Below, in pieces: positions 4,669 through 21,661 of a DNA stretch of 64,000 nt. Source of the DNA: an uncultured bacterium (GTDB lineage: Bacteria; Patescibacteriota; Minisyncoccia; Phycocordibacterales; GWA1-40-21). The notes beneath the pieces were generated by a model that worked only from the letters and a program-made list of their open reading frames with translations, ran no database searches and had not been told where the DNA came from. The stretch's first letter is position 1. The number at the start of each line of letters is the position of its first letter. The position numbers and the translations under genes were made by a program. Location: NCBI GenBank assembly GCA_963716205.1, contig OY970290.1, forward strand, positions 367,417-431,416, written 5' to 3'.

Positions 4669-5544
4669 ATGCAGTATCCTAAAATAATAACGAAAGAAAT
4701 TCCACTTGATCAAATTCATCCAGATCCGAAACAACCTAGAGGAGATTTGGGAACAGAGGCAGATAATAACAAAAATCGTTTGTTGTTATCTATGAAAGAC
4801 TTTGGATTGCGATCCCCCATCGCTGTTGCAAAGATTGGCGAAAATAAATACAGTATCGTCAATGGTGTTCGTCGTTATCGTTGTGCTCAATTGCTCGGCT
4901 GGGAAACTATACGGTCTGAAATTCACCCCGAATCGAGTATAGGAGATATTAAGCGAATCAGGTTTGATCTTCAAAATAATGTGCGTCCGTGGAAAGCCCT
5001 TGAACGTTCTGGTGAGATCAAGGAAATTAAAAATTCTTTGAAACTCAAAACGAACAAGGAACTTGCTGAATATCTTCACTTTCCTCAAAATTTACTCGCC
5101 GTTTCCCTCTCACTCCAGAAGAGACGTGAGGAGTATCAGGATTTAATGGACGAATATGAACTTTCTGAAAGTTATCAGGAAGAATTTGTTGGCCTTGAGC
5201 CGAAAATCAGACCAATCAAAGATTTTACTAAAGATAACATCATACGTAATCTTCTCGACAGAGTAAAACATATGATTATAAAAAGTGCGAAGGATTTTTA
5301 TAAATTAGGTAGTATTTTTCTCAAAGCTCACCGAAACGAAAAGGAAATTCATAACTTCTTGAAGGACCCGGATATGCGAGTATCGGAGCTTGTAGAAAGA
5401 ACAATTCAAGATGGCTATATGAAGGATTTGGAAAATATCATAAAATTGACAAGCACGAAGATTAGCGAAGGATATGTATTTTCTCCCGAGATAAAAAAAA
5501 TACTTAATCAATTTAGAAACTTATTAACTAAAGCTATTGATTAG
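4669..5544 (+). CDS. ParB-like nuclease domain protein
   Basis: N-terminal PLDQIHPDPKQPRG...IVNGVRRYRCAQLLG matches the ParB/Srx N-domain (GxRRxxA motif). A long helical C-terminus follows. Confidence 0.55.
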   Translation: MQYPKIITKEIPLDQIHPDPKQPRGDLGTEADNNKNRLLLSMKDFGLRSPIAVAKIGENKYSIVNGVRRYRCAQLLGWETIRSEIHPESSIGDIKRIRFDLQNNVRPWKALERSGEIKEIKNSLKLKTNKELAEYLHFPQNLLAVSLSLQKRREEYQDLMDEYELSESYQEEFVGLEPKIRPIKDFTKDNIIRNLLDRVKHMIIKSAKDFYKLGSIFLKAHRNEKEIHNFLKDPDMRVSELVERTIQDGYMKDLENIIKLTSTKISEGYVFSPEIKKILNQFRNLLTKAID

Positions 5545-5546
5545 AT

Positions 5547-6917
5547 ATGTTTACTATTGACGAAAAAAATCTTCCGAAAAAAGCTGTAGCATATTATAGA
5601 CATTCGGCGGAAGACAAACAGGAAAATTCAGTGCCCATCCAGCGTGAGCACGCTGTAAAATTCGCTTCCCAACACGGAATAGAAATTATTCATGAGGAAG
5701 CCGATGAAGGAATAAGTGGATTATCGGGTCTGGACTCAAGACCTAGTTTCAAAAGATTGTTTGAAGAATGGATTGAAAATCCAAAAGCTCCTAAATTTGA
5801 TTATGTGCTTGTGCTTGATGAATCACGTTGGGGAAGATTTCAAAATCCTGACGAAGCAGGACATTTGCAATTTCGTTGTAGTCAACAAGATAAACAAGTG
5901 ATTTATATTGATAGTGGTTTCCCTAGAAAAGATCAACCACTCATGAATAATCTAGCTACTTCTATGAAACGAGCTATGGCCGCCGAGTATAGTCGCAATT
6001 TGAGCGAAAAAGTGATTCGTGGATGTATAGAAATTTCAAGACAGGGATATTCTGCCGGTGGTTGTCCTTGTTATGGCATGGCTCGTATGCTTCTCGATGC
6101 TGAGAAAAAACCAATGTATGTATTAAAACCCGGCGAGCATAAAGCAATTGCCAATGCCCGTGTTACCTTTGTGCCAGCCGAGGACGGAACCAAAGAAGTT
6201 GTTCAAGATATTTTTGCGATGTTTGTCAAAGAACAGAAGACGATGAAAGAAATTGCAGAGGTTCTCAACGAAAAAGGTATTCCCTCTCCGAAAAATAAAA
6301 ATTGGGATGATAATAAGATAGCTCGCATCCTTACCAACGAATCATACATTGGCACAAAGACATATAATAAAACGTGGCATCGTCTCAAACAAAAATCAAA
6401 GAAAAATCCTAAAAGTGATTGGGTTATCGTGCCAAACGCTTTTCCAGCAATTATTGATGTCACAACTTTCAATAGTGCTCAAGAAACCATTCATTGGATG
6501 ATGACAAAACACAGAAAGGGTGGCTACTATCTCATCCTAAGAACACAGCGTCGTGTCGAAAAGGAATTAACAGAATTTTTAATACAGAATGGAATTGATC
6601 CGAATGAATCGCTCGTAGCACTGAATCGCTTCCCTATCATTTACAGTGTTGCTTTATTAAACCAGTCTTCTCCTCAATGGTGTTTTGTCGTGCCAGATAA
6701 AATGATGGGCAGTAATTTAGTATTAGGTGTTGGAATTGGTGCAGATAAATCAGAAAAGAATGAGCGCATATTTGCTATTCCCACAAATGAATTAGGGCTG
6801 GTGAATTTCTGTATGTTTTCAGAGAAAGATGATGACTACTCGCGTTATTTTGTGAAAGAGGAACAAGTTGGAGATACAGTTCTATCTATCACCAAAGAGT
6901 TAATAAACGCTATATAA
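5547..6917 (+). CDS. large serine recombinase
   Basis: Resolvase-type N-domain motifs are present: AVAYYRHSAEDKQ (catalytic Ser), EGISGLSGLDSRPSFKRL and VLVLDESRWGR. A recombinase domain and a Cys-containing region follow. The start is 3 bp after the ParB-like gene. Confidence 0.75.
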   Translation: MFTIDEKNLPKKAVAYYRHSAEDKQENSVPIQREHAVKFASQHGIEIIHEEADEGISGLSGLDSRPSFKRLFEEWIENPKAPKFDYVLVLDESRWGRFQNPDEAGHLQFRCSQQDKQVIYIDSGFPRKDQPLMNNLATSMKRAMAAEYSRNLSEKVIRGCIEISRQGYSAGGCPCYGMARMLLDAEKKPMYVLKPGEHKAIANARVTFVPAEDGTKEVVQDIFAMFVKEQKTMKEIAEVLNEKGIPSPKNKNWDDNKIARILTNESYIGTKTYNKTWHRLKQKSKKNPKSDWVIVPNAFPAIIDVTTFNSAQETIHWMMTKHRKGGYYLILRTQRRVEKELTEFLIQNGIDPNESLVALNRFPIIYSVALLNQSSPQWCFVVPDKMMGSNLVLGVGIGADKSEKNERIFAIPTNELGLVNFCMFSEKDDDYSRYFVKEEQVGDTVLSITKELINAI

Positions 6918-7898: not shown

Positions 7899-10800
7899 TT
7901 ACATTAGTGAAGTAAAATTAAGAAGTGGTCCGTGCTTAACAATAAGCCCAGACTGGATCATCTCGTCCACAATATCTTTAACCCGATCTGCTTCCTCTGG
8001 ATCAATCCTCGGCACTTGGAAAATTAATCTGATACTCTGTATTGCGTTATCATACGCCAAGCCAAACTGATCTTTTATTAAAAAATTAATCGCATTTTTA
8101 ATTTCAATAGCTGGAATTTCCCCCAAACGCCTAACAAGACCATCATCACCAGGAACTCTAAAATATGTGCAATCCTTAGAGGTTGGATATAAAAATCCCT
8201 TATCTGATTTATTTTTTTCTACATACCCTTCTTTTATCACTCTTTTGATTGCATTATCAAAATTATCGCTAATATTTGAACCTACCCTTCCAATGTTTGA
8301 TAATTCTCTCACTCTTTCTAAAAGCACGTCCTGATGTATAGGACCCTCCTCTTCTATAATCGTGAGAAGTGCGTGTGAAAAATTGTGGTTTTTACTTGGA
8401 GTCATCAAATCTTTTCTGTTTATTTTAAACGATGATTTTTCGTATCTTTTGCCTACTTTTTGCACTCTCAGTGGAATTTCAGTTAAAATATAGTCCTGAT
8501 CCAAAGTAGTTGTGTTTGGTTTATCCGATTTAGGACTGCTCCGATGATCATTCTTAATTGCCAAGTTGACATTCTCAACTAAACGCTGAAGAGCTTCATC
8601 CCTGTTTCTAAACCACTCGGTTGACCAAATCCTATATAATTTCCAACCCATTCCAAGCAATATTTCTTGTCTGAGAATATCTCTGTCCCTTGCAGATTTT
8701 GAGCTGTGGTATGTTGCACCGTCACACTCAATGCCGATAATGTAGCTTTGTGGATTTTTTGGATCCTTTACAGCAAGATCAATTTTAAAGGAACCGACTC
8801 CCACTTGAGGATCAACAACAAAACCTCTTGCTTCAAGTTCTCTCCGCACGGAATCCTCAAAATCATTTGTTTCTTCGTTTAAAACTTTTGGCGATTCTTT
8901 ATTACTCAAAAAGCCATTTTCTGCATATTGAATATAGTTTTTTAAACCGACAGGACCGAGATTATCCGGATTGATACCAACCAATTCAGAAGATCGTATG
9001 GAAGTTATTAAAATAGTTTTCCACTTTGCTCTGGTAACAAGAACGTTCAATCGCCTCCATCCTCCCGCTGTATTGATTGGTCCAAAATTCAGAGTCATTT
9101 TTCCATCGGCGGCTTTGCCATAACCAATGCTAATCATTATGACGTCTCGCTCGTCTCCCTGGACATTTTCCAACGATTTTACGAAAAAAGGATTCGTTCT
9201 TTCTGGATCCAAAAGAGGAGCAAGGTCTTTGTTTTCTGTCTGTTGCAGTTCTTCCTCCAAAGCTTCCTGAATCGCCTCTTTTTGAGACGAGTTTAAGGCG
9301 ACCACGCCGAGTGTTTTCTCCGGTTCTGTTTTGAAATGCTTAACAATAAGTTTTGCAGTGTGCCGTGCTTCTTTTCTATTTACTCTACTGCCACCCCGAT
9401 CCCATACACCATCGGAAACGTATTCTAGGATGACGCCGCCTGAACTGGCATCAGACGGAGTTGGAAATGTTATAAGCTGACCGTTGTAATAATAATGATT
9501 AGAAAAATTGATCAATCTTTCGTTACGGCTACGGTAGTGCCATTGCAGATCAGTTTCTGAAAATGCTGGAATTGACGCTTTGCAGTCATCCAAAAGAGAT
9601 TCAAGATCATCTGACTGCTGTTCATCCCATTCATCAGAATCATCCAAGATATTGGTTCTGAAAAAAGAGGTTGGTGGCAACTGTTTTGAATCTCCGGCGA
9701 CAATTACTTGTTTTGCCCTCAGGATTGCTGGAATTGCCTCTGGGGTTGGCAATTGTGAAGCTTCATCAAAGATAACGAGATCAAAATTAAACGCTCCTGG
9801 TTTCAAAAAGGTTGATACCGACAAAGGACTCATTAAAAAGCATGGTTTCAAAGCCTGCAATATCTGCGGAATCTCATTAAACAAGACTCTTAACGGCTTC
9901 AATTTTTTCTTTTTCTCCATCTCTTTTCTCAATATTCCGACGCCGTTGGAGGTGCCAATATTTGCGTGTGCAATCCTCACTTGTCTCGCTGTCTGTGCTG
10001 GTTCGGCTATCAAATTTATAGCGGCGAGGCGAGTAATTCGCTCGTCCAGTATTTTATATTTGCTGATCAGCTCCACTTGGGACATCTGTGAAAATTCACT
10101 GAGAATTGGTTTTGAATAGATCATCGCATCTATCCACAGCGAATAAAATCTCTTCTTGAAAATTTCAGTTGATTTTTCAAAATTCTGATGTCCTATCTTT
10201 TCCAAAAATGGCATCAGCTTATTCTCGTGGCAACGTGAAATTATCCTAGAGATTATCTGCTGTTCCCTAGCGCCTTTTTGATTTAGATTCGGCAAAATGA
10301 GATTTAGATATTTGACAGCATCGAATAATTTCAAAGTTTCAATCTTAAAATTATCAAGGAAGCCGTTCGGCCAAAAAGTATTAATCTCCTGGAGAATTTT
10401 CTTAACTTCCTCCTTATTGGCATTCAAAAAATCAACAAGTTTTGCAATATCATTTGAAACTGAAGCGTTAAATACTGTTTTTTCAGGTATGGTGGCGTTG
10501 ATATTGTTTGCCCAGTTTTTGAGATTGATGGCGGTTTTGGTTTCCAATTTGACAGTGGAAAGATTCTTTAAAATCGTTTGGTCTGAATCGTTATGCAGGT
10601 TTAATTCTTTGAATTTTAAAAAAATCTCATCGTCAAGGATAACTATTTTTTGTGAAATATCAAAAGCTTGTGCAAGATCGCCAAACCGAAAAGATTTTAA
10701 ATTATCCAACATTTGCAATACCGCCTTTTTATCTGAGAAATATTTTAACTTGATTCGTGAATACCAGTTTTTATATGTCTCAAAAAACAAATTAGACCCA

Positions 10801-12629
10801 TCAATAATATCTTTTGGATTGTGTGACGAAAACGACTTTAACTGTTTTTGTAAATCTATTCTGGATTCACAAATTTTTGATAAATCGTCAATTTTCAATA
10901 TCGCATTGTCTAACGTTTCAGTGGTCGTTGTATTCCAACCAACAGGCAGGTTTTGCACCTCGGATAATTCTTTGAAAATACTGAGCGAGGAAAGAATTAC
11001 TGGGATTGGCAAATCAAGACCTCTGACAAAATTGGATATTTTTTCCGTATCTTTATTAAATGACTCGCAAAAAATTTTTAGATTATTCAGATATTCATAC
11101 AAAGATTCCAAAACTGATAGATTAGTGCCATCTGCTTTCATTCCCTTCAGAGGATGTTGATCCCTGACTGAGAAAAGCTGGGCATTTTTATCAACATCAG
11201 AAAGAATTTCCAAGGAATGATCCAATTCACTTTTTGATACTTCTAAAATGTTACTCCATGGCAATGTGGCTTTTATAAGCTCAATGTTTTTTAGCTCTTC
11301 GTATTTACCGTATGCAGAGAAAAGATGTATGGTGAGTGGATTGTTAGTATCGTAAATACTTTTGGTGTAGTCATTCAATCTGTTACGAGCTTCAACCAAC
11401 TTAGAAATATCCTCTTTTAGATTTTTAGCCACTTTAATTTCCTCGTTTGATTCCAGAGTTTTTTTCAATTCGTCAATGACTTTTCTTTTGCCAGATTTGA
11501 CTCCGTGTGCTTCCAAACAGAACGGTCCGAAACCAATTTCTTGCAACCTATTATAAACAACACTGAGTGCAGCCATCTTGGAACTAACAAATAGCACTTT
11601 CTTATTCTGACCCAAAGCATTGGCGATAATTGCTGTGATAGTCTGACTTTTGCCCGTTCCAGGCGGGCCATGAATAACAAGATTAGAACCAAGAGACGAA
11701 AGTGTTAACGCCCTCAATTGACTGGAATCCATTTGAACTACAGGCACTGGAACCTGCTCGGGTGTTTCCAGTGAATCCAGATCACTGTCTAATTTCAGAT
11801 TTTCAATAACGTCATTTCTTAAATGAGCAAGTGCTTGGACCAAAATATTGTTTCTTGCCTGACCATCAAGCAATTTCAAATCTTGATAGATAGCCAGGGC
11901 CTCAAAACTAAAAACGCCCAGCCAAGAACGTCCTGTGACTTTCCAATCGCTTGCCTGGACCGTATTTTTAACCTTATTCAAATATTCGTCTATTTTTTTA
12001 TCATCAAGTGAAAAACTTTCTTCCGTTGTTTCCTTATTGGAATTATTAAAAAGTTCTGGTATGTCTATCTCTTCTCGTTCTTTCAAATAATATTTCAGAG
12101 CCGGATTGATAACAACATCCTCGTCAGCCATAATCAAACTTAAAGCCCTCGTTCCTCCTTTCTGTTCAAGACTGCACGGTATCATTATCAAAGGACTTTC
12201 CGATCTGCCCATGAGGGGATCTTCCCACTCCAGACACCCAATCGTTAAATAAAGTGTATTAACACCACGTTCGTTTAAAGTGCTTTTTGAATTATCATAA
12301 ATTTTCCTGATTTTTCCTCTCAGCTCTTTTGCACCGGAGTATAAAAAAGACATCTCGCCTTCATGCAATATGTAATCTTCGGCAGATTCATCTTCGGAAA
12401 ATAAATCCTTCTTTTTTATTTTTTTCTGAACAAACGGTAATGTGACAGCACTATCATCGGTATATAAAGTTTTCAACAAATATTCAAAATCTGGTTTATC
12501 CAATTCCAGTTTGGCTGCTCTGGAACGATTCAAACCTAACAATGGGTTTGATTTTGAGACATCAATTAAGCGTTCTTGCCAACGCTTTAATACTGCACCG
12601 ATCTTTTCGGATATGGAACTATCATTCAT
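7899..12629 (-). CDS. 1576-aa multidomain protein: N-terminal DUF4011-like region, SF1 (Upf1-like, AAA_11/AAA_12) helicase, DUF559-like (Vsr/PD-(D/E)xK) endonuclease, and DUF3320-like C-terminus
   Basis: Walker A LVIHGPPGTGKSQTI, Walker B/DEAD-like VIFDEASQL, helicase motifs YRSRNERLINF and GWRRLNVLVTRAK. The nuclease motif is IGIECDGATYHSSKSARDRD...GWKLYRIWSTEWFRN. Confidence 0.8.
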   Translation of the reverse strand: MNDSSISEKIGAVLKRWQERLIDVSKSNPLLGLNRSRAAKLELDKPDFEYLLKTLYTDDSAVTLPFVQKKIKKKDLFSEDESAEDYILHEGEMSFLYSGAKELRGKIRKIYDNSKSTLNERGVNTLYLTIGCLEWEDPLMGRSESPLIMIPCSLEQKGGTRALSLIMADEDVVINPALKYYLKEREEIDIPELFNNSNKETTEESFSLDDKKIDEYLNKVKNTVQASDWKVTGRSWLGVFSFEALAIYQDLKLLDGQARNNILVQALAHLRNDVIENLKLDSDLDSLETPEQVPVPVVQMDSSQLRALTLSSLGSNLVIHGPPGTGKSQTITAIIANALGQNKKVLFVSSKMAALSVVYNRLQEIGFGPFCLEAHGVKSGKRKVIDELKKTLESNEEIKVAKNLKEDISKLVEARNRLNDYTKSIYDTNNPLTIHLFSAYGKYEELKNIELIKATLPWSNILEVSKSELDHSLEILSDVDKNAQLFSVRDQHPLKGMKADGTNLSVLESLYEYLNNLKIFCESFNKDTEKISNFVRGLDLPIPVILSSLSIFKELSEVQNLPVGWNTTTTETLDNAILKIDDLSKICESRIDLQKQLKSFSSHNPKDIIDGSNLFFETYKNWYSRIKLKYFSDKKAVLQMLDNLKSFRFGDLAQAFDISQKIVILDDEIFLKFKELNLHNDSDQTILKNLSTVKLETKTAINLKNWANNINATIPEKTVFNASVSNDIAKLVDFLNANKEEVKKILQEINTFWPNGFLDNFKIETLKLFDAVKYLNLILPNLNQKGAREQQIISRIISRCHENKLMPFLEKIGHQNFEKSTEIFKKRFYSLWIDAMIYSKPILSEFSQMSQVELISKYKILDERITRLAAINLIAEPAQTARQVRIAHANIGTSNGVGILRKEMEKKKKLKPLRVLFNEIPQILQALKPCFLMSPLSVSTFLKPGAFNFDLVIFDEASQLPTPEAIPAILRAKQVIVAGDSKQLPPTSFFRTNILDDSDEWDEQQSDDLESLLDDCKASIPAFSETDLQWHYRSRNERLINFSNHYYYNGQLITFPTPSDASSGGVILEYVSDGVWDRGGSRVNRKEARHTAKLIVKHFKTEPEKTLGVVALNSSQKEAIQEALEEELQQTENKDLAPLLDPERTNPFFVKSLENVQGDERDVIMISIGYGKAADGKMTLNFGPINTAGGWRRLNVLVTRAKWKTILITSIRSSELVGINPDNLGPVGLKNYIQYAENGFLSNKESPKVLNEETNDFEDSVRRELEARGFVVDPQVGVGSFKIDLAVKDPKNPQSYIIGIECDGATYHSSKSARDRDILRQEILLGMGWKLYRIWSTEWFRNRDEALQRLVENVNLAIKNDHRSSPKSDKPNTTTLDQDYILTEIPLRVQKVGKRYEKSSFKINRKDLMTPSKNHNFSHALLTIIEEEGPIHQDVLLERVRELSNIGRVGSNISDNFDNAIKRVIKEGYVEKNKSDKGFLYPTSKDCTYFRVPGDDGLVRRLGEIPAIEIKNAINFLIKDQFGLAYDNAIQSIRLIFQVPRIDPEEADRVKDIVDEMIQSGLIVKHGPLLNFTSLM

Positions 12630-12672
12630 GGACTAATTCTAGCAAAAAATCATTCTAATATCTAATCAAAAA

Positions 12673-13449
12673 TTATGCCGTTGGATAACCGAATGAGCGA
12701 AGTATAGCAAGCCAGCTTAAAGATAAAAACCAATCAATCGGTAAATTCGGATATACTTTTATGAGGGGTGATTTTCCTTCCTTATCCTCCCAAATAAGTA
12801 TGTAAGGATCCTTTCTAAGATGTTGAGTTCCTAATGAATGTGAAAATCCAGATCGCATTGCACCGTATATATCTCCAATAACTTCTTCAATGGTGGCAAA
12901 TGATTTTTTGCCTGTTTCTTGTTCCATACCTCTATAATGTTTGATAGCATCTTTCTTTTCCTTTTCTGTAAGCCATTGCGAATAAAATTTTTTTGATCGA
13001 GCAGCATTTTTAGGGAATAATGATTCATGTTTTTTAGAAAATTTACTGATATCTTCCGGGGTCTTTATGTCTTTAAAATTCTCTTTTAAAAATGAAATGA
13101 AACTTTGTGTTTTACTTAAAGCGGTTCTATTTTCTACGATTGAAAACATAACGTGTAGAGCAAGAGTGGATCGCACTATGTTTTCATAATATCCAATACT
13201 TTTTCCTCTCCCATCTTGTTTGAATAGAAGCAACGGTTCCATATAAGTTCTAAAAAAAATTAAGTATCCGCAAAGTTCCGTTTTATCTGATTGTTTTAAT
13301 GCATCAATTATTGAAACCAATAAATTTTTATTCAAAGCTGGGCAAGGATTTTGCAAACATTTATCCAATGTTTCTATTGTATACTCTGCAATTTCAATTG
13401 ATGTTGAATTTATAGATAAATACTTCATATATATTATATCAAGAACCAC
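12673..13449 (-). CDS. hypothetical protein (258 aa), middle gene of the three-gene operon
   Basis: The ORF is flanked at 8 bp and 43 bp by co-oriented genes. No family recognised. Confidence 0.5.
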   Translation of the reverse strand: MVLDIIYMKYLSINSTSIEIAEYTIETLDKCLQNPCPALNKNLLVSIIDALKQSDKTELCGYLIFFRTYMEPLLLFKQDGRGKSIGYYENIVRSTLALHVMFSIVENRTALSKTQSFISFLKENFKDIKTPEDISKFSKKHESLFPKNAARSKKFYSQWLTEKEKKDAIKHYRGMEQETGKKSFATIEEVIGDIYGAMRSGFSHSLGTQHLRKDPYILIWEDKEGKSPLIKVYPNLPIDWFLSLSWLAILRSFGYPTA

Positions 13450-13456
13450 TTCCTAT

Positions 13457-13948
13457 TTAAGTCTTTTCCTCAAACTCCATAAGAAGCGAGAGATAATGCT
13501 TTTGTTTTTCAGTATCAATCCAGGAACTTAAAAGCGGTGATATATTTCCATTTGAAGTAATGATGCGATTTATAGCATCAAAGAAAAAACCTTCTGGTGT
13601 AGCAAGAAAAAGCCATGCAACATTCCAGTGTTCACGCACCTGTTTTGCTATGTTTATGATCTCCTCCGAGGTTGAAGAATGACGATATTTCACCTCAACG
13701 AGATATACTTGGGAACGGTCTTGGGTAATGATTATAAAATCAGGCGCATGGCGTATATTATCCAAAACTTGTTTTACTTCAATGACATGCTGATACTGCG
13801 CTACCTCCGGCACAGTCTTTTCATAACCAAATGGAAGGATAGTAAATTTACCGCAGTCACGAAACATCTGCTCAAAGATAACCTCTGCGATCTTTCCCTT
13901 CAGGAGATCACGGGAAAATGATATTTCTTTGTTTAATGATTTTTCCAC
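13457..13948 (-). CDS. small PD-(D/E)xK nuclease-fold protein (Hjc/Mrr-like)
   Basis: Motif order is E (AEVIFEQ) ... PDFIIIT ... VYLVEVKYR, i.e. E-PD-(D/E)xK. Confidence 0.5.
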   Translation of the reverse strand: MEKSLNKEISFSRDLLKGKIAEVIFEQMFRDCGKFTILPFGYEKTVPEVAQYQHVIEVKQVLDNIRHAPDFIIITQDRSQVYLVEVKYRHSSTSEEIINIAKQVREHWNVAWLFLATPEGFFFDAINRIITSNGNISPLLSSWIDTEKQKHYLSLLMEFEEKT

Positions 13949-14013
13949 AACTGAATATTTTTTATAAACGTCTAATTATTATGGGGATGTCCTAGTTTAA
14001 GGTAGTGAATAAA

Positions 14014-14268
14014 TTATTGTTCAAACTCATTTCTCAATTCTTCTTTTAGTTCTTTTTTTGTATCCTTTAATACTGCGCCAAGTATTGTGTCAAAACCCAA
14101 GAATACACCGAGGTAAAAGACTATGAAAAATATCAAGAACCAAACAAAGTTTTCCTGTACGGCATTTACTATTGCAAAATAAAGCCCTATCGGTGGCAAT
14201 AATATGGATAAGACCTTAATGAGCCAGTCTAAAGCATCCCATAACCACCAATTTTTCCAGTTTTTCAT
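14014..14268 (-). CDS. small membrane protein (passenger in the IS-bounded segment)
   Basis: Two predicted TM helices (WWLWDALDWLIKVLSILLPPIGLYFAIV..FLIFFIVFYLGVFLGF). Confidence 0.4.
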   Translation of the reverse strand: MKNWKNWWLWDALDWLIKVLSILLPPIGLYFAIVNAVQENFVWFLIFFIVFYLGVFLGFDTILGAVLKDTKKELKEELRNEFEQ

Positions 14269-14293
14269 ATACCTAGATTATATCCTTATCCTT

Positions 14294-15154
14294 TTATTCC
14301 CACAAGTTAGGTTGATATTCTTGCCCCATCATTCTGTTGTAGTTATTTTCAAACTTGCGCTTGTCTCCAGAAACTTTAAGGGTTGCTACTACTTGCCATA
14401 TTTGTGAACGAATAGCGGGTAATCCAACCTTTTCACTTAAGTGAGAGTGATGTCTTTTTTTTCTTGATTTTGTAGATGTTGTTGGATTTTTTTCGTCCAA
14501 AACTTTCAACACTTCTCCTTTTTCAAAGGGTTCATAAATATATTTTCGTATGAACCCAGCATAGTATAATGGTCTATTACGAGAAGTTGTTTTTTGATTT
14601 CCATAAATGCGGTCCATTTGATAAAAAAGTTCATCGGGAAATTCTTTTGACCATTTTCTAACTTCTTCAGCTAGATAACTTTCAACGAGCATTCTGAATG
14701 CTTCGGGATGTTTGAATTTTTCGTATCCCAACTGTTCATAAATAAGAGCAGTAATACCTACCGCAGAAAATGCGTCAGACATTGTCTCACAAACTGTGGC
14801 AGTAGGTAACTGATTTTTGGTTAATACCCCTGCTCTTTCAGCATCACGATATACGCGACAAATCAACGGGAGTATTTTTGCATCATATCCAGTAGAAAGC
14901 CGTCCTCCATCATAAAACTCTATTCCTTTCAGCATCTCATCTAATTCAGGACGAATAAATTTTTGAAGATTCATCGCTCCGATAAAACTAGGTTTATCTG
15001 TCCTACTTGAACCTTTCCATGCTCTTCCTAACGCTTTCATCATCTTACCTTTATTCAAAATTGGAGTACCATCTTCAAGTACCGCACAATCTATCTCTAC
15101 CCCGTTCAATGTGATTGGACCGCTTCCCCATGCTTTTGGTATATTTTTTTCCAT
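14294..15154 (-). CDS. hypothetical protein (286 aa), passenger gene, possibly phage-associated
   Basis: Long ORF between the transposase and the IRL. No confident family. Confidence 0.45.
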   Translation of the reverse strand: MEKNIPKAWGSGPITLNGVEIDCAVLEDGTPILNKGKMMKALGRAWKGSSRTDKPSFIGAMNLQKFIRPELDEMLKGIEFYDGGRLSTGYDAKILPLICRVYRDAERAGVLTKNQLPTATVCETMSDAFSAVGITALIYEQLGYEKFKHPEAFRMLVESYLAEEVRKWSKEFPDELFYQMDRIYGNQKTTSRNRPLYYAGFIRKYIYEPFEKGEVLKVLDEKNPTTSTKSRKKRHHSHLSEKVGLPAIRSQIWQVVATLKVSGDKRKFENNYNRMMGQEYQPNLWE

Positions 15155-15172
15155 AAATGGCTTTAATTAAGG

Positions 15173-16045
15173 TTAATTTGATTGGACCGCTTGTAATACT
15201 AATGTATCAAACATTCCTGCATCGCCACGCTTATTGTATCGGAAACAAAACTCGTTGATGTAGGCGTTCAAATGCTTTGCTGTTACATGATGATACTGAC
15301 CGATAATACCACGTTTCAAAAGCGACCAAAAACTTTCAATCGTGTTTGTGTGGGCAATACCAGTAACATAGTTTCCTTTACCATGATTGACTTTACTGTG
15401 TTCAAAGTTCTTTTTGTCCAGTCCATTGTATGCACCCCATTCGTCCGTCATAATATGAGAACCTTTTTTTACATTTTGATTGATGAGCATTTGAAGCGAG
15501 CGAGCATTCACATTGTTTACTTTCTGCGCGCGGACTTCACCACCTCTTTTCAAAACTCCAAAAACTGGCGTTTTGTCTTTTGTACTTCTGCCTTGTCCGC
15601 CCTTTGTTTTATCGTTCCAGTGTTTATTTTTGTTTTTTCCACCGACATACGTTTCGTCCGCCTCAACGATACCCTCTAGCAATGCTCCCTGTTCTCGCAT
15701 AGCTCGGCGAATACGCATGAGCATGAGCCATGCAGTATTCTTGTTGACTTCGATGTCGCGAGCAAGCTGACGTGAACTCATCCCTTTTTTGGCGTTAAGG
15801 ATAAGAGAGATAGCAAGAAACCATTTCTGTAAGTCCAGTTTCGTCTTGTGAAAAATTGTTTTGACCGTTATACTAAAAGATGTATTGCAGGCATTGCAGT
15901 GGTATCGGCTTTCTTTTATAAATTTGGTAACTCGAAGCGAGTTACAATATGGACATTTTGGCTCGCCATTCCATCTGACTTTTTCTAGATGGTCTAGGCA
16001 ATCCTGCTGTGTCGGAAACTGTTTGTATACTTGTATTATGTTCAT
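15173..16045 (-). CDS. IS1595-family (ISXO2-like) DDE transposase
   Basis: N-terminal zinc ribbon CPYC...CNAC. The ETYVGGK, MTDEWGAY and HTNTIESFWSLLKR motifs are typical of IS1595 Tnp. Confidence 0.8.
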   Translation of the reverse strand: MNIIQVYKQFPTQQDCLDHLEKVRWNGEPKCPYCNSLRVTKFIKESRYHCNACNTSFSITVKTIFHKTKLDLQKWFLAISLILNAKKGMSSRQLARDIEVNKNTAWLMLMRIRRAMREQGALLEGIVEADETYVGGKNKNKHWNDKTKGGQGRSTKDKTPVFGVLKRGGEVRAQKVNNVNARSLQMLINQNVKKGSHIMTDEWGAYNGLDKKNFEHSKVNHGKGNYVTGIAHTNTIESFWSLLKRGIIGQYHHVTAKHLNAYINEFCFRYNKRGDAGMFDTLVLQAVQSN

Positions 16046-16161
16046 GGTTTTTTATTACTACCTTTATCTAGGTATAGTACACCATGACGAGACTTGCAGT
16101 CAAGACAATTTCTGTGTTGTAACTGTTTTATTCACTACCTTAAACTAGGACATCCCCATTA

Positions 16162-16806
16162 TTATTTCTTAACCTTATAAAATTTCATCTCTACTCCACT
16201 GTATCGCTCGATCAATCCCTCATAAATTAAACCTTCAAGGGGTTCATAATCCTGATATTGATCTATCTGTGCCAATGCATTTCTATAATCATCTTTATTT
16301 TCTTTTTCGATTTTTATGGATATACCGACTAATCCGTATCTCTCCAAAATCAGATTTGCCGCTAATCGTGCCGTTCGTCCGTTCCCTTCTCTAAAAGGAT
16401 GGACGTTGGTAATCAGATGGTGGAGCCATGCCGCAGTTCGTATAATCTTTTCAATCGCATCAAGCACTTCTTCCGTTACATCTTTGGCAATAATCAGTCC
16501 TTCAACTTTCTCCAAATTTTTTAATCGTATGATAAGTTCGTCCTTCGCTTTTTTCATATATTCATGCACCTGTGAATGATGCGGCGGCAGATGTTTTGAA
16601 TCAGTTATTTCCAGATTTTCATCACGATACTTTCCGGCAATTTCAGGCCACGCATGTTCAAAAATGCACTTATGAATTTCTGATATGGTATCTATGGTGA
16701 TCGGTTTGTGAGAATGGGCGTAGGTTCTCACAAAACGAGAAGCGCGGATAACTCCAATCGCTTCTCGTTTCTGCATTTCCTGTTCGTCTTTCGGTCTTTC
16801 CACCAT
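16162..16806 (-). CDS. Fic/Doc family protein (AMPylase-type toxin core)
   Basis: Fic active-site motif HPFREGNGRTARL. Confidence 0.8.
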   Translation of the reverse strand: MVERPKDEQEMQKREAIGVIRASRFVRTYAHSHKPITIDTISEIHKCIFEHAWPEIAGKYRDENLEITDSKHLPPHHSQVHEYMKKAKDELIIRLKNLEKVEGLIIAKDVTEEVLDAIEKIIRTAAWLHHLITNVHPFREGNGRTARLAANLILERYGLVGISIKIEKENKDDYRNALAQIDQYQDYEPLEGLIYEGLIERYSGVEMKFYKVKK

Positions 16807-17016
16807 TTATTTTACGTCTTTAGCTAGTTTCTCAAATTCTTTACGGCCTAATTTACTTCCTTCAAGAGCACTTGAATAATATGCATGTTCAACATCCCAT
16901 GCTTTTTCAATTTCAGATTTTTGAGCAGGGGTAAGTTTTGAAAGTTGTTTCTGGGCTGTTTGTGCCACGGAAAAAAGCTCTCTTGCTAATGTTTTGTTTC
17001 CATTCATTGTTGTCAT
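16807..17016 (-). CDS. Fic_N / FicA-like antitoxin (69 aa) carrying the inhibitory SxxxEG motif
   Basis: YYSSALEGSKL matches the (S/T)xxxE(G/N) inhibitory helix. It is in the same frame as the fic core, separated by a single TAA directly followed by ATG. Confidence 0.5.
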   Translation of the reverse strand: MTTMNGNKTLARELFSVAQTAQKQLSKLTPAQKSEIEKAWDVEHAYYSSALEGSKLGRKEFEKLAKDVK

Positions 17017-17190: not shown

Positions 17191-17222
17191 GTTCTTACAT
17201 CGTTCAACATTCGGAGCAGAAA
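17191..17222 (+). repeat. cassette-boundary repeat R0 (degenerate copy)
   Basis: gttcttacatcgttcaacattcggagcagaa, compared with the consensus gttctaacttcctctatccannggagcagaa. Confidence 0.5.
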
Positions 17223-17291
17223 TTAGACAAATATTATTTATTTTGATAATCTAAATTTGGAAGCAGTTATCTTATTTGAAGGGGTGAGATT

Positions 17292-17480
17292 GTGGAAATT
17301 AAAGGAAACTACGTAAAGGTTGTCTATAGTTCTGAATCAGTCCTTTTGAATACGCCGGCAACGATTGATATTTATGAGAAAGGTAAACTAATTGTAAAAT
17401 TAAACGCAACGGTTGTACCACAAACAGGAGCTGATTCAAAACAATATCCATCCGTTCAAATTAAGGTGACTAGTCCTTAG
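17292..17480 (+). CDS. small hypothetical protein (cassette 0)
   Basis: RBS aggggtgag upstream of a GTG/TTG start. Confidence 0.3.
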   Translation: MEIKGNYVKVVYSSESVLLNTPATIDIYEKGKLIVKLNATVVPQTGADSKQYPSVQIKVTSP

Positions 17481-17513
17481 ATGTTAAATTTAAGTGAAAG
17501 GAAGTGATGAAAA

Positions 17514-17777
17514 ATGTCAGAGCATTTGATATATTTCTGTAAGAGTTGCGGTAAAATGAGGGCCGAAGCAAAGGATACTCGTTGTGCCGAATGCGAGAAA
17601 TTATTGAATCCTCCCATCGCTGATATCGTTGATAAAGACGCTGAAATTCAGAGATTAAGAGATGAGAATGCAAGACTTGAGGAAAAGATTAAGTCTCTTG
17701 AGAGCGACGAAAGAGCTAAGAGCGAATATCGGGAATATATGAGTGCCGTCGGCAAAGACACTGTAGCTGGTGGATAG
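17514..17777 (+). CDS. zinc-ribbon (CxxC...CxxC) coiled-coil protein (cassette 0)
   Basis: CKSCGK...CAECEK. RBS gaaaggaagtga. A terminator-like hairpin follows. Confidence 0.45.
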   Translation: MSEHLIYFCKSCGKMRAEAKDTRCAECEKLLNPPIADIVDKDAEIQRLRDENARLEEKIKSLESDERAKSEYREYMSAVGKDTVAGG

Positions 17778-17846
17778 TTCACCTTTTAGTAGAAAATAAG
17801 CTCCGGATCTAAATGATTCGGGGCTTTTATATTCTCCAATTACCTA

Positions 17847-17885
17847 CCAAACAAGTTCTAACTTCCTCTATCCAAGGGAGCAGAA
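17847..17885 (+). repeat. cassette-boundary repeat R1
   Basis: ccaaacaagttctaacttcctctatccaagggagcagaa. Confidence 0.7.
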
Positions 17886-17913
17886 TAATATCAACTTTGA
17901 TATACTCTTGTAC

Positions 17914-18429
17914 ATGCAGAAAAGCATTCAAGAGGTAATTGAAATTATAAAAACTAAAGAGAAAACTTTGTTTATTTTGTGCGGTCTTCCCTATTCTGGC
18001 AAAACATACATAGCCAAAGAAATTATGAAATATGTTCCTATGATCTATGTCAGCATTGATAATATTTTCCACGAGCATGGCTATGATTGGAATGTTAATA
18101 AACTACCGGATGAAATAGCTTGGACAGAAATATTTGATGTATCGTATGAGAAAGCTCGTAAAGCACTCAATCAATCCTTAAATGTTTTATATGATTCCAC
18201 AAACCACACTAAGATTAGTCGCGATGATTTACGTAAAGTAGCTGGGAGTGTAGGAGCAGATACAAACGTTATTTTTATAGATGTTCCAGTTGATACTATT
18301 TATAAAAGATGGGAGGAAAACAAAGTTAATAAAACAAGATCGATAGTTGATAGAAAGTTGGTAGATATGACTATAAAGGCTTTTGAAAAACCTATAAAGG
18401 GTGAAAATGTATTAATTTTGGCTAATTAA
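17914..18429 (+). CDS. P-loop kinase (AAA_33 / zeta-toxin-like / polynucleotide-kinase-like) (cassette 1)
   Basis: Walker A ILCGLPYSGKTYIAKE and a DSTNHT region. The ATG at 17914 lies 7 bp after an extended -10 (TGaTATACT), so the mRNA is probably leaderless. Confidence 0.55.
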   Translation: MQKSIQEVIEIIKTKEKTLFILCGLPYSGKTYIAKEIMKYVPMIYVSIDNIFHEHGYDWNVNKLPDEIAWTEIFDVSYEKARKALNQSLNVLYDSTNHTKISRDDLRKVAGSVGADTNVIFIDVPVDTIYKRWEENKVNKTRSIVDRKLVDMTIKAFEKPIKGENVLILAN

Positions 18430-18430
18430 T

Positions 18431-18464
18431 AAGGTTCTAACTTCCTCTATCCATGGGAGCAGAA
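18431..18464 (+). repeat. cassette-boundary repeat R2 (between convergent genes)
   Basis: aaggttctaacttcctctatccatgggagcagaa. Confidence 0.7.
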
Positions 18465-18479
18465 ATAGATTTTGTTTTA

Positions 18480-18923
18480 TCATTCAATTTTTTTACCCCA
18501 TTTTTGCCTATACTCTTCTTCACCCTTTCTCAGTGTTTCTTTAAGGTCATTAATTGATTTTTCTAATTTTTCAGCTATATCTAAACCCATGTGTGAATTA
18601 TAAAAATTAAATTCGTCTGTTTTTACTTTTTCTTTAATTACACCCTCTGTCTTTTCATGAGACTCTTTTTCTGTTGTCGTATTAGTATAAACTTTATTCT
18701 CACCTTGAATTAATCTTTCGTAGGCATTATTTATATTTTGTGTAATCTCAGTTGCCCTTGGATCGGTATTAACATCAGGGTGTAATTTTTTTAATAAGTC
18801 CATCCACGTGTTTTTAATATCCTCAGGTGTAGCTGTTTCTTCCAATCCCAATACTTCATAAGGATTAGCGCTATAAAATTGGTCATAATTTTCTTGGTTT
18901 GTATTTGGTGATTCAAAACTCAT
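18480..18923 (-). CDS. J-domain (DnaJ-like) protein, 147 aa (cassette 2)
   Basis: NPYEVLGLEETATPEDIKNTWMDLLKKLHPDVN with the HPD tripeptide. Confidence 0.65.
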   Translation of the reverse strand: MSFESPNTNQENYDQFYSANPYEVLGLEETATPEDIKNTWMDLLKKLHPDVNTDPRATEITQNINNAYERLIQGENKVYTNTTTEKESHEKTEGVIKEKVKTDEFNFYNSHMGLDIAEKLEKSINDLKETLRKGEEEYRQKWGKKIE

Positions 18924-18961
18924 ATCAAAAGTATATCAAAAAATATCTAATTTACTAGAAA

Positions 18962-18996
18962 ACATTTTCTAACTTTCTTTATCTAAGGGAGTAAAA
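18962..18996 (+). repeat. cassette-boundary repeat R3 (degenerate)
   Basis: cattttctaactttctttatctaagggagtaaaa. Confidence 0.5.
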
Positions 18997-19070
18997 ATTA
19001 ATACTTGACACTGTATTATATTATGTGCTATTATTTACTCGGCTAAATTTACAGTAAGAAGGAGACGGAA

Positions 19071-19469
19071 ATGAAATTAATATCTTTGCTGTTTTGTTCC
19101 TTGTTGTTTACAGGCTGTGCAGCAATCCGAGATCAAGTTCAAGCTCCGCAAGGTAAAATTGTTATTAAACACAGCGGAATTGAAGAAAAACTCCAACAAA
19201 AAATTCAAGAAGTTAAAAAGTATTGGGGAGTTCGACAAGTTGGCGTCGGGTATCCGAATAAATGGAGTCCTGATGAAATGTCGGCAGAAGTAACAGCTGA
19301 GTATCGCGCCAAAGTAGATTATATGGAAAAAGTTCTCCATAAAGACTCTGCGGTGCTTGTTGGTATTGGGGTCGATTATGTCCTTGATGACCACTATAAA
19401 GTTTATGCCGCAATCGCGTTTGACATCAAAAAGAAACTTTTTGGCAAACGCAAAAGCCCTCATTCGTGA
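19071..19469 (+). CDS. lipoprotein (cassette 3)
   Basis: Signal peptide with lipobox LLFTGC. Promoter TTGACA-18-TATTAT and RBS aaggagacgg. The terminator at 19455-19484 overlaps the TGA stop. Confidence 0.55.
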   Translation: MKLISLLFCSLLFTGCAAIRDQVQAPQGKIVIKHSGIEEKLQQKIQEVKKYWGVRQVGVGYPNKWSPDEMSAEVTAEYRAKVDYMEKVLHKDSAVLVGIGVDYVLDDHYKVYAAIAFDIKKKLFGKRKSPHS

Positions 19470-19484
19470 GGGTTTTTCTTTTAT
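19455..19484 (+). terminator. rho-independent terminator (ccctca ttcg tgaggg + TTTTTCTTTT)
   Basis: Stem-loop followed by a T-run. Confidence 0.6.
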
Positions 19485-19492
19485 CTAATTCC

Positions 19493-19534
19493 CCACCAAA
19501 CAAGTTCTAACTTCCTCTATCCATGGAAGCAGAA
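19493..19534 (+). repeat. cassette-boundary repeat R4
   Basis: ccaccaaacaagttctaacttcctctatccatggaagcagaa, followed by TTGACA-17-TAAACT. Confidence 0.7.
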
Positions 19535-19613
19535 ATAAAACTTGACAAAAACATTATTTGATATTAAACTATTAGTAGGAAAGAAATCAAATTATAACTG
19601 GTTGGAGGAGAAA

Positions 19614-19841
19614 ATGTTTACTTACCTAAGATCGCCGTTGGGATACGTCCTCATAACAGTTTTTGTTGTCGGTTTTTTCCTTTTAATTTTGCCGTTTCAT
19701 TTTGGTTTCCATTGGTGGATTATCATTACCACCATTATCGGCTCAGCTCTCTGTGCTTGGAGTGGGCTCTTAATGTATGGAATTTATGATATCGAAAAAG
19801 AAGACAGACATTTTTTAGATATCGAAATGAAAAAATTATAA
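19614..19841 (+). CDS. small two-TM membrane protein (cassette 4)
   Basis: The ATG is preceded by ggttggaggag. The hydrophobic core is VLITVFVVGFFLLILPF...WWIIITTIIGSALCAW. Confidence 0.45.
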   Translation: MFTYLRSPLGYVLITVFVVGFFLLILPFHFGFHWWIIITTIIGSALCAWSGLLMYGIYDIEKEDRHFLDIEMKKL

Positions 19842-19980
19842 AGTGACGATCCCCCGCCCCTTGTTCTTAGGAACTTGTGGGCGGTTTTCTTTTACCCAAA
19901 TCAATATATTCCTCCAGCAAGAGGGAGGCAGAAAAGAAAAACCCTGCATTACACAGGATTTTTCCAATGCAATACAGGGT

Positions 19981-20349
19981 TTACGAAGAATCTCTAAGAA
20001 AACGTTGCCAGCGATGAGTCTCTTCCTTCTGTTTGTTAGAGCATTCATCCCACACTTTTGCTAGTTCACTAAGACGCGCAATGGACATGGGTAGTTCGAA
20101 ACGTTTTTCAGAATATGTATACGTCTCGTCCAACATTCGATAATTCTTTTCGGCACGTTTTCTTTCCTTAGGATCTTGATCATCTCTGGCGATTATTTGA
20201 GCACCGTACCACGCTCTCCTAATGAGATCTTCAAGTATCGTTCTACCCACCATTTTCTCATTATAGAGAAGAGCTTCTTTTGTTCTTCCGTGTTTCCGAC
20301 CAAACCAATAAACGAACATTAGAGCGACGAGCAACGCTATGATTTCCAT
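19981..20349 (-). CDS. N-terminally membrane-anchored hypothetical protein (cassette 4, convergent)
   Basis: The MEIIALLVALMFVYWF TM anchor is followed by a charged domain. Confidence 0.4.
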   Translation of the reverse strand: MEIIALLVALMFVYWFGRKHGRTKEALLYNEKMVGRTILEDLIRRAWYGAQIIARDDQDPKERKRAEKNYRMLDETYTYSEKRFELPMSIARLSELAKVWDECSNKQKEETHRWQRFLRDSS

Positions 20350-20425
20350 AAAATCTCCTTTTAGAAAGATCAACTTCTTTTACTAAAATTTACATTACCC
20401 CTTAAGATTTATTTAGTCAAATGTT

Positions 20426-20463
20426 AAAACAGGTTCCAACTTCCTCTATCCATCGGAGCAGAA
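20426..20463 (+). repeat. cassette-boundary repeat R5
   Basis: aaaacaggttccaacttcctctatccatcggagcagaa, followed by TTGACA-17-TATTGT. Confidence 0.7.
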
Positions 20464-20569
20464 CATATTATTGACAATTAATTTAATATCTGATATTGTA
20501 ATGATTAGTTGTTACTAGCGATTATTTCCCAAAAAATCGCTAAATTTAAAATTTTTGGAGGTTTTGACA

Positions 20570-20976
20570 TGAGGAGTTTTAGCAATAAAGTAACACTGGA
20601 AGAAGTGAGACTTCTTTTGTATCAAAATTATAACCCCGAAAGAGAGTCATATAATCCTTCTGAACATTGGAGAGGATGCAAAGGTCTACTTATGTTTGCT
20701 GATTATATTGAACGCTGGATCGGAGATAATATCTTTGATTGGTCAAAAAAGAAAAATGACCTTTTATGGTTACCAATTTGTGATTTTGTTGACCATTATC
20801 CTGTTTCAGCTCATACCATGAAGTTGCTGCAAAAGTATTACCAAAACGCTGGAGAATGTACTATGTATCTTTTTCTTGGAGGGAAAATCAATTTTCGGAA
20901 ACATAAGGGTGTTGGAAAGAAAGCTATTTTAGAAGTCAAAAAAGCTTTCGCCAGTTGTGGTTTCCGTTTCCTCTAA
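20570..20976 (+). CDS. small protein with C-terminal helix-hairpin-helix-like motif (cassette 5)
   Basis: LGGKINFRKHKGVGKKAILEVKKAF resembles an HhH GxG motif. RBS ggaggttttgacATG. Confidence 0.4.
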
Positions 20977-21117
20977 GAAGTTCTTTGGTTACTGGTTGAT
21001 GCCTCCTGAACCATCTGTGGCCATTCTTTCCAAAAAAAGGATTCGCCCAAGAAAATAACAGAGTTAAAAGTTAAGATTCCAAACCTTAACTGATGACTGT
21101 AGTTATAACCGGGAGTT

Positions 21118-21157
21118 AGGCGGTCTTCTCTACCAAGAAGAACCGCCTATTTTATTG
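21118..21157 (+). terminator. orphan rho-independent terminator (ggcggtcttct...agaagaaccgcc + ATTTTATT) about 140 nt after the cassette-5 ORF
   Basis: Strong hairpin and T-rich tail. There is no ORF of 60 aa or more between 20977 and 21117. Confidence 0.45.
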
Positions 21158-21160
21158 CAT

Positions 21161-21198
21161 AAAACAAGTTCTCACTTCCTCTATCCAAGGGAGCAGAA
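21161..21198 (+). repeat. cassette-boundary repeat R6
   Basis: aaaacaagttctcacttcctctatccaagggagcagaa. Confidence 0.7.
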
Positions 21199-21273
21199 AT
21201 TATTTGACTAATTATTTAATTATAGTAGTTTAGACATTAAATTTGTTCTTAATAAAGAAAGGTGGTGATTTTT

Positions 21274-21498: not shown

Positions 21499-21520
21499 TA
21501 ATTTCTATCAAAGTAATGAA

Positions 21521-21549
21521 AAGCCCCTGAGTAATTGAGGGGCTTTTTT
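21521..21549 (+). terminator. rho-independent terminator (agcccct...aggggct + TTTTTT)
   Basis: 7-bp stem followed by a T6 run. Confidence 0.6.
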
Positions 21550-21566
21550 CATGTCTAATTTCCTTT

Positions 21567-21604: not shown

Positions 21605-21618
21605 GTTTATAAATAAAA

Positions 21619-21642: not shown

Positions 21643-21661
21643 GTGATACAAAATGATACAG

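Follow-up and report, generated by a model that had tools for sequence, protein, structure and literature searches.

Three neighbouring genes on the minus strand raise the question whether they form one multi-gene defence system or came together as separate units in the window, by which we mean the whole 64,000-nucleotide stretch of DNA analysed. The largest gene (7899..12629, ATG start) encodes a 1576-aa helicase-nuclease, the second (12673..13449, GTG start) a 258-aa protein and the third (13457..13948, GTG start) a 163-aa protein. An alternative ATG lies seven codons inside the 258-aa gene and would give a 251-aa form (P0001). The first-pass annotation, which proposed the trio as an unnamed defence system, had placed all three reading frames exactly and was right about the 43-bp gap between the 1576-aa and 258-aa genes; the gap between the 258-aa and 163-aa genes is 7 bp and not 8 bp as given there. 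The genome-wide median gap between genes on the same strand is 15.5 bp in this genome. Because close gaps are the genomic norm, the tight spacing of the co-oriented trio is no evidence for an operon-encoded system. A promoter and terminator scan found no terminator-like sites between the three genes, and it is uninformative since its counts match the shuffle expectation. Co-transcription and a local functional interaction of the three genes are possible.

The helicase-nuclease and its relatives

The domain composition read from the 1576-aa protein in the first-pass annotation was borne out by Pfam, with all domains encoded on the minus strand. An N-terminal DUF4011 domain (PF13195, aa 20-182, 12084..12572) matched the full profile (positions 1-158) at 1.3e-24. 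It is followed by a helicase core (aa 300-1213, 8991..11732), supported by AAA_11 and AAA_12, by PDB sequence matches and by the conservation profile. A Vsr-like restriction-endonuclease-fold domain, REase_MTES_1575 (PF18741, aa 1257-1353, 8571..8861, 4.1e-37), was the best nuclease model with 126.6 bits against a gathering cut-off of 38.2. Of the earlier DUF559/Vsr-like call, the Vsr-like part thus stands, while the DUF559 model itself scored just under its cut-off. The last domain is DUF3320 (PF11784, aa 1418-1454, 8268..8378, 1.5e-8), a winged helix-turn-helix according to the literature (PMC3710099).

The core is of the Upf1-like SF1 type, with Walker A, a DExx motif II and the motif VI arginine, and its PDB sequence matches were IGHMBP2, Upf1/Nam7 and Sen1 (4b3g, 2xzl, 5mzn). 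Four motifs picked out earlier, GPPGTGKS (Walker A, aa 321-328), DEASQ (955-959), VTRAK (1198-1202) and IECDGATYH (1300-1308), are all present in the translation and are invariant or nearly so in 25 homologs. In the nuclease domain, D1284, E1301-C-D-G1304 and Y1307-H1308 are invariant in the same set. Between Walker A and DEASQ lies an insert of some 400-500 aa (approximately aa 401-900) in which conservation is poor and reaches its minimum at aa 501-800.

In PADLOC, the protein matched PDC-S37 with E = 0 and 1162 bits, residues 8-1569 aligning with positions 4-1543 of the 1550 in the profile. By this profile match it is a member of a catalogued single-gene candidate family with the same length, the same domain order and no conserved partner gene, from which it shows no structural difference. 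The architecture had been described as known and widespread, in agreement with the PADLOC entry and with a count of over 7,220 homologs that are about 1,570 aa long and carry the same domains. Its pairing with the two small genes had been held not to be a named defence system; the large protein by itself is listed in PADLOC under PDC-S37. Members of the family were found in many genome-reduced lineages of the candidate phyla radiation (CPR), on 465 plasmids and, at near full length, on about a dozen IMG/VR contigs. To our knowledge PDC-S37 is a candidate by bioinformatics only, and a literature search returned neither a validation nor a mention of it. The 1576-aa protein is an ordinary further representative of this already known family, an Hhe-like one that is common in genome-reduced CPR bacteria, and the locus leaves the current understanding of defence systems unchanged.

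Hhe is said to have been described by Gao and colleagues in 2020 as a single-gene system with a DUF4011 helicase and a Vsr endonuclease. Like the 1576-aa protein, it joins a DUF4011 domain, an SF1 helicase and a Vsr-like nuclease in a single chain, but it is longer (about 1,800-1,900 aa), and a good alignment is limited to the nuclease and the C-terminal half of the helicase (PADLOC, residues 836-1354, 571 bits). The NCBIfam equivalog model for Hhe (NF042953) gave 807.5 bits against a cut-off of 2000, its best stretch being residues 645-1364. Judged by these alignments PDC-S37 is a sister family of Hhe and not its ortholog. Defence against phages has been demonstrated experimentally for Hhe and is lost in the nuclease mutant E1731A (bioRxiv 10.1101/2022.06.16.496414); the ECDG block that corresponds to this essential glutamate is invariant in the family of the 1576-aa protein. 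A second NCBIfam equivalog, NF058533 ('anti-phage protein ProA'), scored 1123 bits with a cut-off of 1500. Its profile positions 358-1899 of 1903 align with residues 12-1537, and the extra N-terminal region of ProA (about the first 357 positions) has no counterpart here. A literature search found no publication defining ProA.

By analogy, an anti-phage role may be proposed for the 1576-aa protein, and this is an extrapolation since it rests on Hhe and on the PADLOC candidate list. What it acts on and how its domains share the work we infer as follows. The Upf1-like motor would load on nucleic acid and translocate with ATP, the variable insert together with DUF4011 and DUF3320 may recognise the target, and the MTES_1575 domain would cut DNA, as suggested by the point mutant in the nuclease of Hhe.

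The two small genes and the IS1595 boundary

The 163-aa protein carries the signature GYE (41-43), PD (69-70) and EVK (85-87). Among 33 family members, E43, P69, D70 and K87 of this signature do not vary, and E85 is conserved in 90% or more. Its predicted structure has the restriction-endonuclease-like order alpha-beta-beta-beta-alpha-beta of the PD-(D/E)xK fold, and signature and model together uphold the earlier PD-(D/E)xK assignment. On this basis we regard the protein as an independent, stand-alone Hjc-like PD-(D/E)xK nuclease. It does not group with archaeal Hjc or other minimal PD-(D/E)xK nucleases at the sequence level, and it differs from them in a long N-terminal helix, a C-terminal helix and the habitat of its family, which is mobile elements and not recombination operons. 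The Pfam model Tn7_TnsA-like_N reached 22.3 bits, under its gathering threshold of 26.5. Where its context recurs, the neighbours of the family were a serine recombinase (12 loci), a rolling-circle Rep (nine) and an HTH protein (six); an EcoRII-type restriction-modification locus and a relaxase/T4SS locus were further contexts. The family had no match on plasmids and none in IMG/VR, and an exact look-up of the window's own protein returned no record. This well-populated family, whose members frequently neighbour serine-recombinase and Rep genes, is perhaps worth cataloguing.

The 258-aa protein matched nothing in Pfam, NCBIfam, PADLOC or PHROG. It had been annotated as free of recognisable motifs, which holds for these databases and not for its own family, where 15 sequences all have R199, H204 and W246. 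The first two residues frame the invariant R199-S-G-F-S-H204 (Rx4H) motif (12838..12855, minus strand). The family is rare, with one named member from Candidatus Kaiserbacteria: a word-indexed search returned the protein itself only, and an exhaustive HMMER search 23 representatives. None was found in IMG/VR, and a search of metagenomes with a 5-sequence alignment gave no confirmed locus. The genomic contexts of the family come from four exact look-ups, the 15-sequence alignment being too divergent for pattern design. Structure prediction, suggested earlier as a check, gave a confident and mostly alpha-helical AF2 model with a C-terminal beta-hairpin (pLDDT 87.7), and this rare, confidently folded Rx4H family is perhaps worth cataloguing as well.

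The motif falls within the Rx4-6H pattern of the HEPN superfamily in all 15 sequences, and the protein may be a HEPN-like RNase. It differs from HEPN toxins (HepT, Las1, the HEPN of Cas13), the minimal ones of which are half its size, and its motif lies at the C-terminal end of its helix, before the beta-hairpin. The HEPN families of Pfam matched none of the 15 members, even at E-values as high as 10, a Foldseek search with the model found no match, and hhalign of the family against neighbouring DUF4145 and DUF4238 proteins (candidate HEPN) gave nothing.

The upstream edge of the apparent operon is an IS1595 insertion. This 2,175-bp element (13983..16157, minus strand) encodes a DDE transposase (DDE_Tnp_IS1595, 3.8e-48) with an N-terminal zinc ribbon (5.9e-10) and carries as passengers an 84-aa membrane ORF and a P63C gene. 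Its terminal inverted repeats of about 31-40 nt are 95% complementary over 40 nt, and it is flanked by two copies of the 8-bp target-site duplication ATTATTAT, read from the sequence at 13975..13982 and 16158..16165. Transposase, repeats and duplication agree with what defines the IS1595 family. A stretch of 26 bp separates the insertion and its duplication from the start codon of the 163-aa gene downstream, and the right copy overlaps the stop codon of a Fic gene, which matches PDC-S04/SoFic in PADLOC. The IS element, Fic gene, repeat array and recombinases reported earlier are all present in the window, and the mobile-element and defence-island character ascribed to the region is reflected in the matches to PDC-S04/SoFic and PDC-S37. 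Shared orientation and minimal gaps do not count as evidence for an operon-encoded system in a compact genome, and here the apparent boundary is set by an IS element.

Co-occurrence and competing explanations

Conservation of the trio across genomes had been named as a check of the three-gene system, with absence of co-occurrence elsewhere as the finding that would speak against it. A set of 206 fetched loci was searched with HMMs for all three families; 114 of the loci belong to the 1576-aa family, six to the 258-aa family and 86 to the 163-aa family. At 74 loci of the 1576-aa family the sequence extended at least 1.5 kb upstream; for the 163-aa family, 53 loci reached 1 kb or more on the downstream side and 24 reached 5.6 kb or more. 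No gene of the 163-aa or 258-aa family was present at any of the 114 loci of the large gene, and neither partner family was found at the six loci of the 258-aa family, for which four distinct contexts were available. The 258-aa family was absent from all 86 loci of the 163-aa family, and a helicase-nuclease occurred at one of them, where it is convergent, shorter and different. Across all 206 loci the complete trio was found nowhere but in the window. This is the very finding that was to speak against the three-gene system, which is therefore unsupported, the small genes never having been found with the large gene elsewhere.

The large gene had no recurrent neighbour beyond close taxa in 84 loci. 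The close CPR relatives examined (at least 60% identity) come from three distinct loci, the other 80 genome loci being 24-44% identical, and neither small gene was found beside the 76%, 74% or 60% ortholog, all three of which have entirely different flanks. Immediately upstream of the 76% and 74% orthologs is a serine recombinase gene, the two recombinases being 75% identical to each other. That flanking genes differ between close CPR orthologs suggests movement as a single-gene unit. The region is probably best explained as a patchwork of independently acquired cargo genes of mobile-element or defence type, and not as a three-gene system, in a compact genome that is probably of CPR (Patescibacteria) origin.

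Of the competing explanations, the one that survives best holds the 1576-aa protein to be a housekeeping helicase-nuclease of genome maintenance, acting in repair or on replication and recombination intermediates, so that its presence would say nothing about defence. A DUF4011 gene is a core gene in every P. aeruginosa isolate (PMC10250203), and the 60% ortholog, from Nomurabacteria, lies among pentose-phosphate genes, the same protein occurring on 24 contigs with one distinct neighbourhood shown. The presence of the family in many reduced-genome CPR lineages would fit as well. Against this, the serine recombinases beside the 74-76% orthologs, in wholly different flanks, indicate mobility; the family is also carried by plasmids and by viral or prophage contigs, its relative Hhe protects against phages experimentally, and both PADLOC and NCBIfam model the closest families as anti-phage. 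We consider a housekeeping role rather unlikely.

The 163-aa nuclease and the 258-aa Rx4H protein might instead make up a two-gene module of their own, a toxin-immunity or abortive-infection pair that works independently of the helicase. The 7-bp gap, the prediction of both products as nucleic-acid enzymes and the predominance of both families in CPR-type metagenomes speak for such a pair, which is nonetheless improbable, as the two families did not meet at any of 86 other loci of the 163-aa family or six of the 258-aa family. The gene downstream of 163-aa homologs differs between loci and shows no relationship to the 258-aa protein, and a 166-aa gene upstream of one 258-aa homolog, considered as a counterpart of the 163-aa gene, is unrelated to that family.

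Also very improbable is that this CPR lineage recruited the Hjc-like nuclease and the Rx4H protein to a PDC-S37 helicase-nuclease, with the 258-aa family being an undescribed family of HEPN-like RNases; if true, the locus would be a young three-component system with DNase and RNase effectors. Least probable of all is the original proposal of a lineage-specific operon in which the small nuclease and the 258-aa protein serve one defence system as accessory effector or sensor subunits, for co-orientation, close gaps without a predicted terminator, a plausible composition of two nucleases and a possible HEPN protein, and surroundings rich in mobile elements and defence candidates are set against the missing co-occurrence, closest orthologs that lack both small genes, ordinary spacing, an edge made by an IS element and a PADLOC model for a single gene.

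Links between the loci through shared mobile elements were also considered. The window's serine recombinase (5547-6917) is unrelated, beyond the superfamily level, to those beside the closest orthologs of the 1576-aa protein, and a common mobile-element backbone was rejected, since the loci of the three families held no homologs for any other window gene except for weak matches. These, involving the window's ParB-like gene and its PEMT/ICMT methyltransferase gene, were to one and the same locus.

The trio and its large helicase-nuclease

Three ORFs were found on the minus strand exactly at the coordinates given in the first-pass annotation: the large gene at 7899-12629 (1576 aa), the 258-aa gene at 12673-13449 and the 163-aa gene at 13457-13948. 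Every motif that it quoted was present in the translations, and its intergenic gap of 43 bp between the large and the 258-aa gene was confirmed; the second gap measured 7 bp instead of the reported 8 bp. The 258-aa gene starts with GTG; the 251-aa form known from another data set begins at an ATG further inside. As the median gap of the 44 same-strand adjacent pairs in the window is 15.5 bp, with 68% at 50 bp or less, the tight spacing of the trio carries no evidential weight here. The trio is included in a co-directional run of seven genes. Promoter-like and terminator-like sites were as frequent as in shuffled sequence.

By Pfam, the large protein consists of DUF4011 (residues 20-182), the AAA_11 and AAA_12 domains of a Upf1-like SF1 helicase, a Vsr-like endonuclease (residues 1257-1353, best model REase_MTES_1575, 4e-37, with the DUF559 model marginally under threshold) and DUF3320 (residues 1418-1454). 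A winged helix-turn-helix overlapping DUF3320 was described by Anantharaman et al. (PMC3710099). Sequence matches in the PDB were IGHMBP2, Upf1/Nam7 and Sen1. Walker A, DEASQ, motif VI and the ECDG...YH nuclease block were invariant in a 25-sequence alignment of the family, and conservation was poor from Walker A to motif II (approximately residues 401-900), with a minimum at 501-800.

Residues 8-1569 of the protein aligned with positions 4-1543 of the 1550-position PADLOC profile PDC-S37, a single-gene "phage defence candidate", an end-to-end match of 1162 bits. With the PADLOC model of the validated system Hhe (571 bits), only the nuclease and the C-terminal half of the helicase aligned. With the NCBIfam models, 807.5 bits were obtained for Hhe (cut-off 2000) and 1123 bits for "anti-phage protein ProA" (cut-off 1500), whose profile is unmatched over roughly its first 357 positions. 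Orthology with Hhe or ProA was rejected because both of these scores fall below cut-off; together with the full-length PDC-S37 match, they place the protein as a PDC-S37 member and a sister to both. The protein is of an already catalogued kind, and its gene adds a new member to a candidate-defence family known before. Hhe was reported to act against lambda, T3, T7 and PhiV-1, with loss of activity in the Vsr-domain mutant E1731A (bioRxiv 10.1101/2022.06.16.496414); a literature search found no publications on PDC-S37 or ProA.

More than 7,220 homologous proteins were found at E < 1e-30. Among the matches listed, homologs were about 1,450-1,620 aa long with the same domains throughout, and the closest came from CPR lineages including Taylorbacteria, Paceibacterota, Nomurabacteria and Berkelbacteria. 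The family spans bacterial and archaeal phyla and occurs on 465 plasmids and, near full length, on about a dozen IMG/VR contigs.

The large protein is probably a stand-alone one, with the 163-aa and 258-aa genes as separate cargo. It would act alone. Judging from its domains and from Hhe, the SF1 motor would move along nucleic acid, recognition would fall to the DUF4011 and DUF3320 modules together with the variable insert, and the Vsr-like nuclease would cut DNA. The genes of the 163-aa PD-(D/E)xK nuclease and the 258-aa Rx4H protein would have become adjacent in a compact, mobile-element-rich genome.

Neighbourhoods of the three families

Co-occurrence was assessed with one HMM per family, scanned against the six-frame ORFs of all fetched loci. 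No gene of the 163-aa or 258-aa family was detected in the 114 loci of the large family (84 genomic or metagenomic and 30 viral), where 74 of the 85 first-scan hits, including locus L132, had at least 1.5 kb of upstream sequence. Three distinct loci with close CPR orthologs of the large gene were examined. In the two closest, at 76% and 74% identity, a large serine recombinase gene in the same orientation lies immediately upstream of the helicase-nuclease gene and the genes downstream are different ones; the helicase-nuclease may travel with the recombinase in this lineage. The spacing between both genes is 37-55 bp (recombinases at L007 5623-6945 and L008/L009 5193-6530); these recombinases share 75% identity and are unrelated to that of the window. 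The 60% ortholog is flanked by pentose-phosphate genes and a DUF2130 gene. This housekeeping context, and the presence of a DUF4011 gene in the P. aeruginosa core, would agree with a housekeeping repair role for the large protein, but such a role is unlikely given the evident mobility of the gene. Clustering of all neighbours of the large gene gave no recurrence beyond close taxa.

For the 163-aa family, 86 loci were scanned, 53 with at least 1 kb and 24 with at least 5.6 kb downstream, and none contained a 258-aa family gene; the gene downstream differs between loci and shows no relationship to the 258-aa protein. A helicase-nuclease was nearby in one of the 86, L132 (2717-6539), the sole other locus examined with this pairing. 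It is convergent there and combines an SF1 helicase and an MTES_1575 nuclease in 1064 aa, without DUF4011. A large serine recombinase, transcribed divergently, recurs beside the 163-aa family in 12 loci, a rolling-circle Rep (REP_ORF2-G2P) in nine and an HTH protein in six; other copies follow a Dcm-Vsr-EcoRII-C module or have a relaxase on one side and a T4SS coupling protein on the other. The 258-aa family was represented by six loci in four distinct contexts, each locus with 600 bp or more upstream and four of the loci with 1 kb or more downstream; none had a gene of the large or the 163-aa family. That the 163-aa and 258-aa proteins, adjacent in the window and apart in these loci, form an independent two-gene module is very improbable.

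The flanks of the closest large-gene orthologs weigh decisively against a three-gene system, a lineage-specific version of which we consider very unlikely. With no co-occurrence of the three families in the loci scanned, different ortholog flanks and a varying gene downstream of the 163-aa family, the trio therefore did not recur in the other loci sampled, an outcome that the first-pass annotation had itself set against its proposal of a three-gene defence system; this interpretation is not supported.

Members of the 163-aa PD-(D/E)xK family lie recurrently beside a divergent HTH gene, a Rep (REP_ORF2-G2P) and a large serine recombinase in L004 (215-4311), L005, L006 and about nine more loci, which suggests that CPR-type metagenomes contain a family of small integrative replicons.

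The 258-aa protein

The 258-aa protein appeared to be an orphan in a word-indexed search; an exhaustive HMMER search retrieved 23 representatives of its family among 1.84 billion, one of them from Candidatus Kaiserbacteria. The family is rare and confidently folded. R199, H204 and W246 are invariant in its alignment (A1), the motif RSGFxH corresponding to Rx4H. The protein had zero matches in Pfam, NCBIfam, PADLOC and PHROGs. Since Foldseek found no match in the PDB and the HEPN Pfam families did not match any family member at E up to 10, a HEPN-like RNase is put forward tentatively, as a hypothesis rather than an assignment. A DUF4238 gene adjoins one family member (L174 8911-9861) and another lies near an ortholog of the large protein (L008 12379-13299); hhalign did not relate DUF4238 to the 258-aa family.

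The IS1595 element and surrounding genes

Upstream, the trio ends at an IS1595 insertion. The complete IS1595-family element spans 2,175 bp (13983-16157), and its terminal inverted repeats measure about 31 nt; it is delimited by a 40-nt inverted repeat with 95% complementarity (13974-14013 and 16127-16166) and flanked by the 8-bp direct repeat ATTATTAT as target duplication (13975-13982 and 16158-16165). It encodes a transposase and, as passengers, a P63C/phrog_2384 gene and an 84-aa membrane ORF with two TM segments. It is present in a single copy within the window, between the 163-aa gene and a Fic gene; before insertion, about 26 bp separated the Fic stop codon from the 163-aa start codon downstream of it. 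The Fic-domain protein gene (16162-17016, minus strand; PADLOC PDC-S04, 2.5e-23, and SoFic, 5.6e-17) is the second defence-candidate gene of the co-directional run, and a 69-aa ORF abutting it immediately upstream may be its partner.

The cassette array mentioned in the first-pass annotation was located at 17191-23042, where a 35-75-nt repeat (core GTTCTAACTTCCTCTATCCAWGGGAGCAGAA) occurs at least eight times at intervals of 400-1,400 bp, with small ORFs in between. It looks like a gene-cassette array; no integron-type integrase is directly adjacent. Other mobile-element genes in the vicinity are a tyrosine integrase (350-1462), a ParB-like gene (4669-5544) and a serine recombinase (5547-6917). 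The other window genes had nothing in common with the loci of the three families, save that one locus (L171) was weakly matched by a PEMT/ICMT methyltransferase gene and by the ParB-like gene. The region is a patchwork rather than a common mobile-element backbone. A full-length LOOT RNA (Rfam RF03000, 3242-3366, plus strand; 85 bits, gathering score 46.4) is intergenic, near the tyrosine integrase and the ParB-like/serine-recombinase pair.
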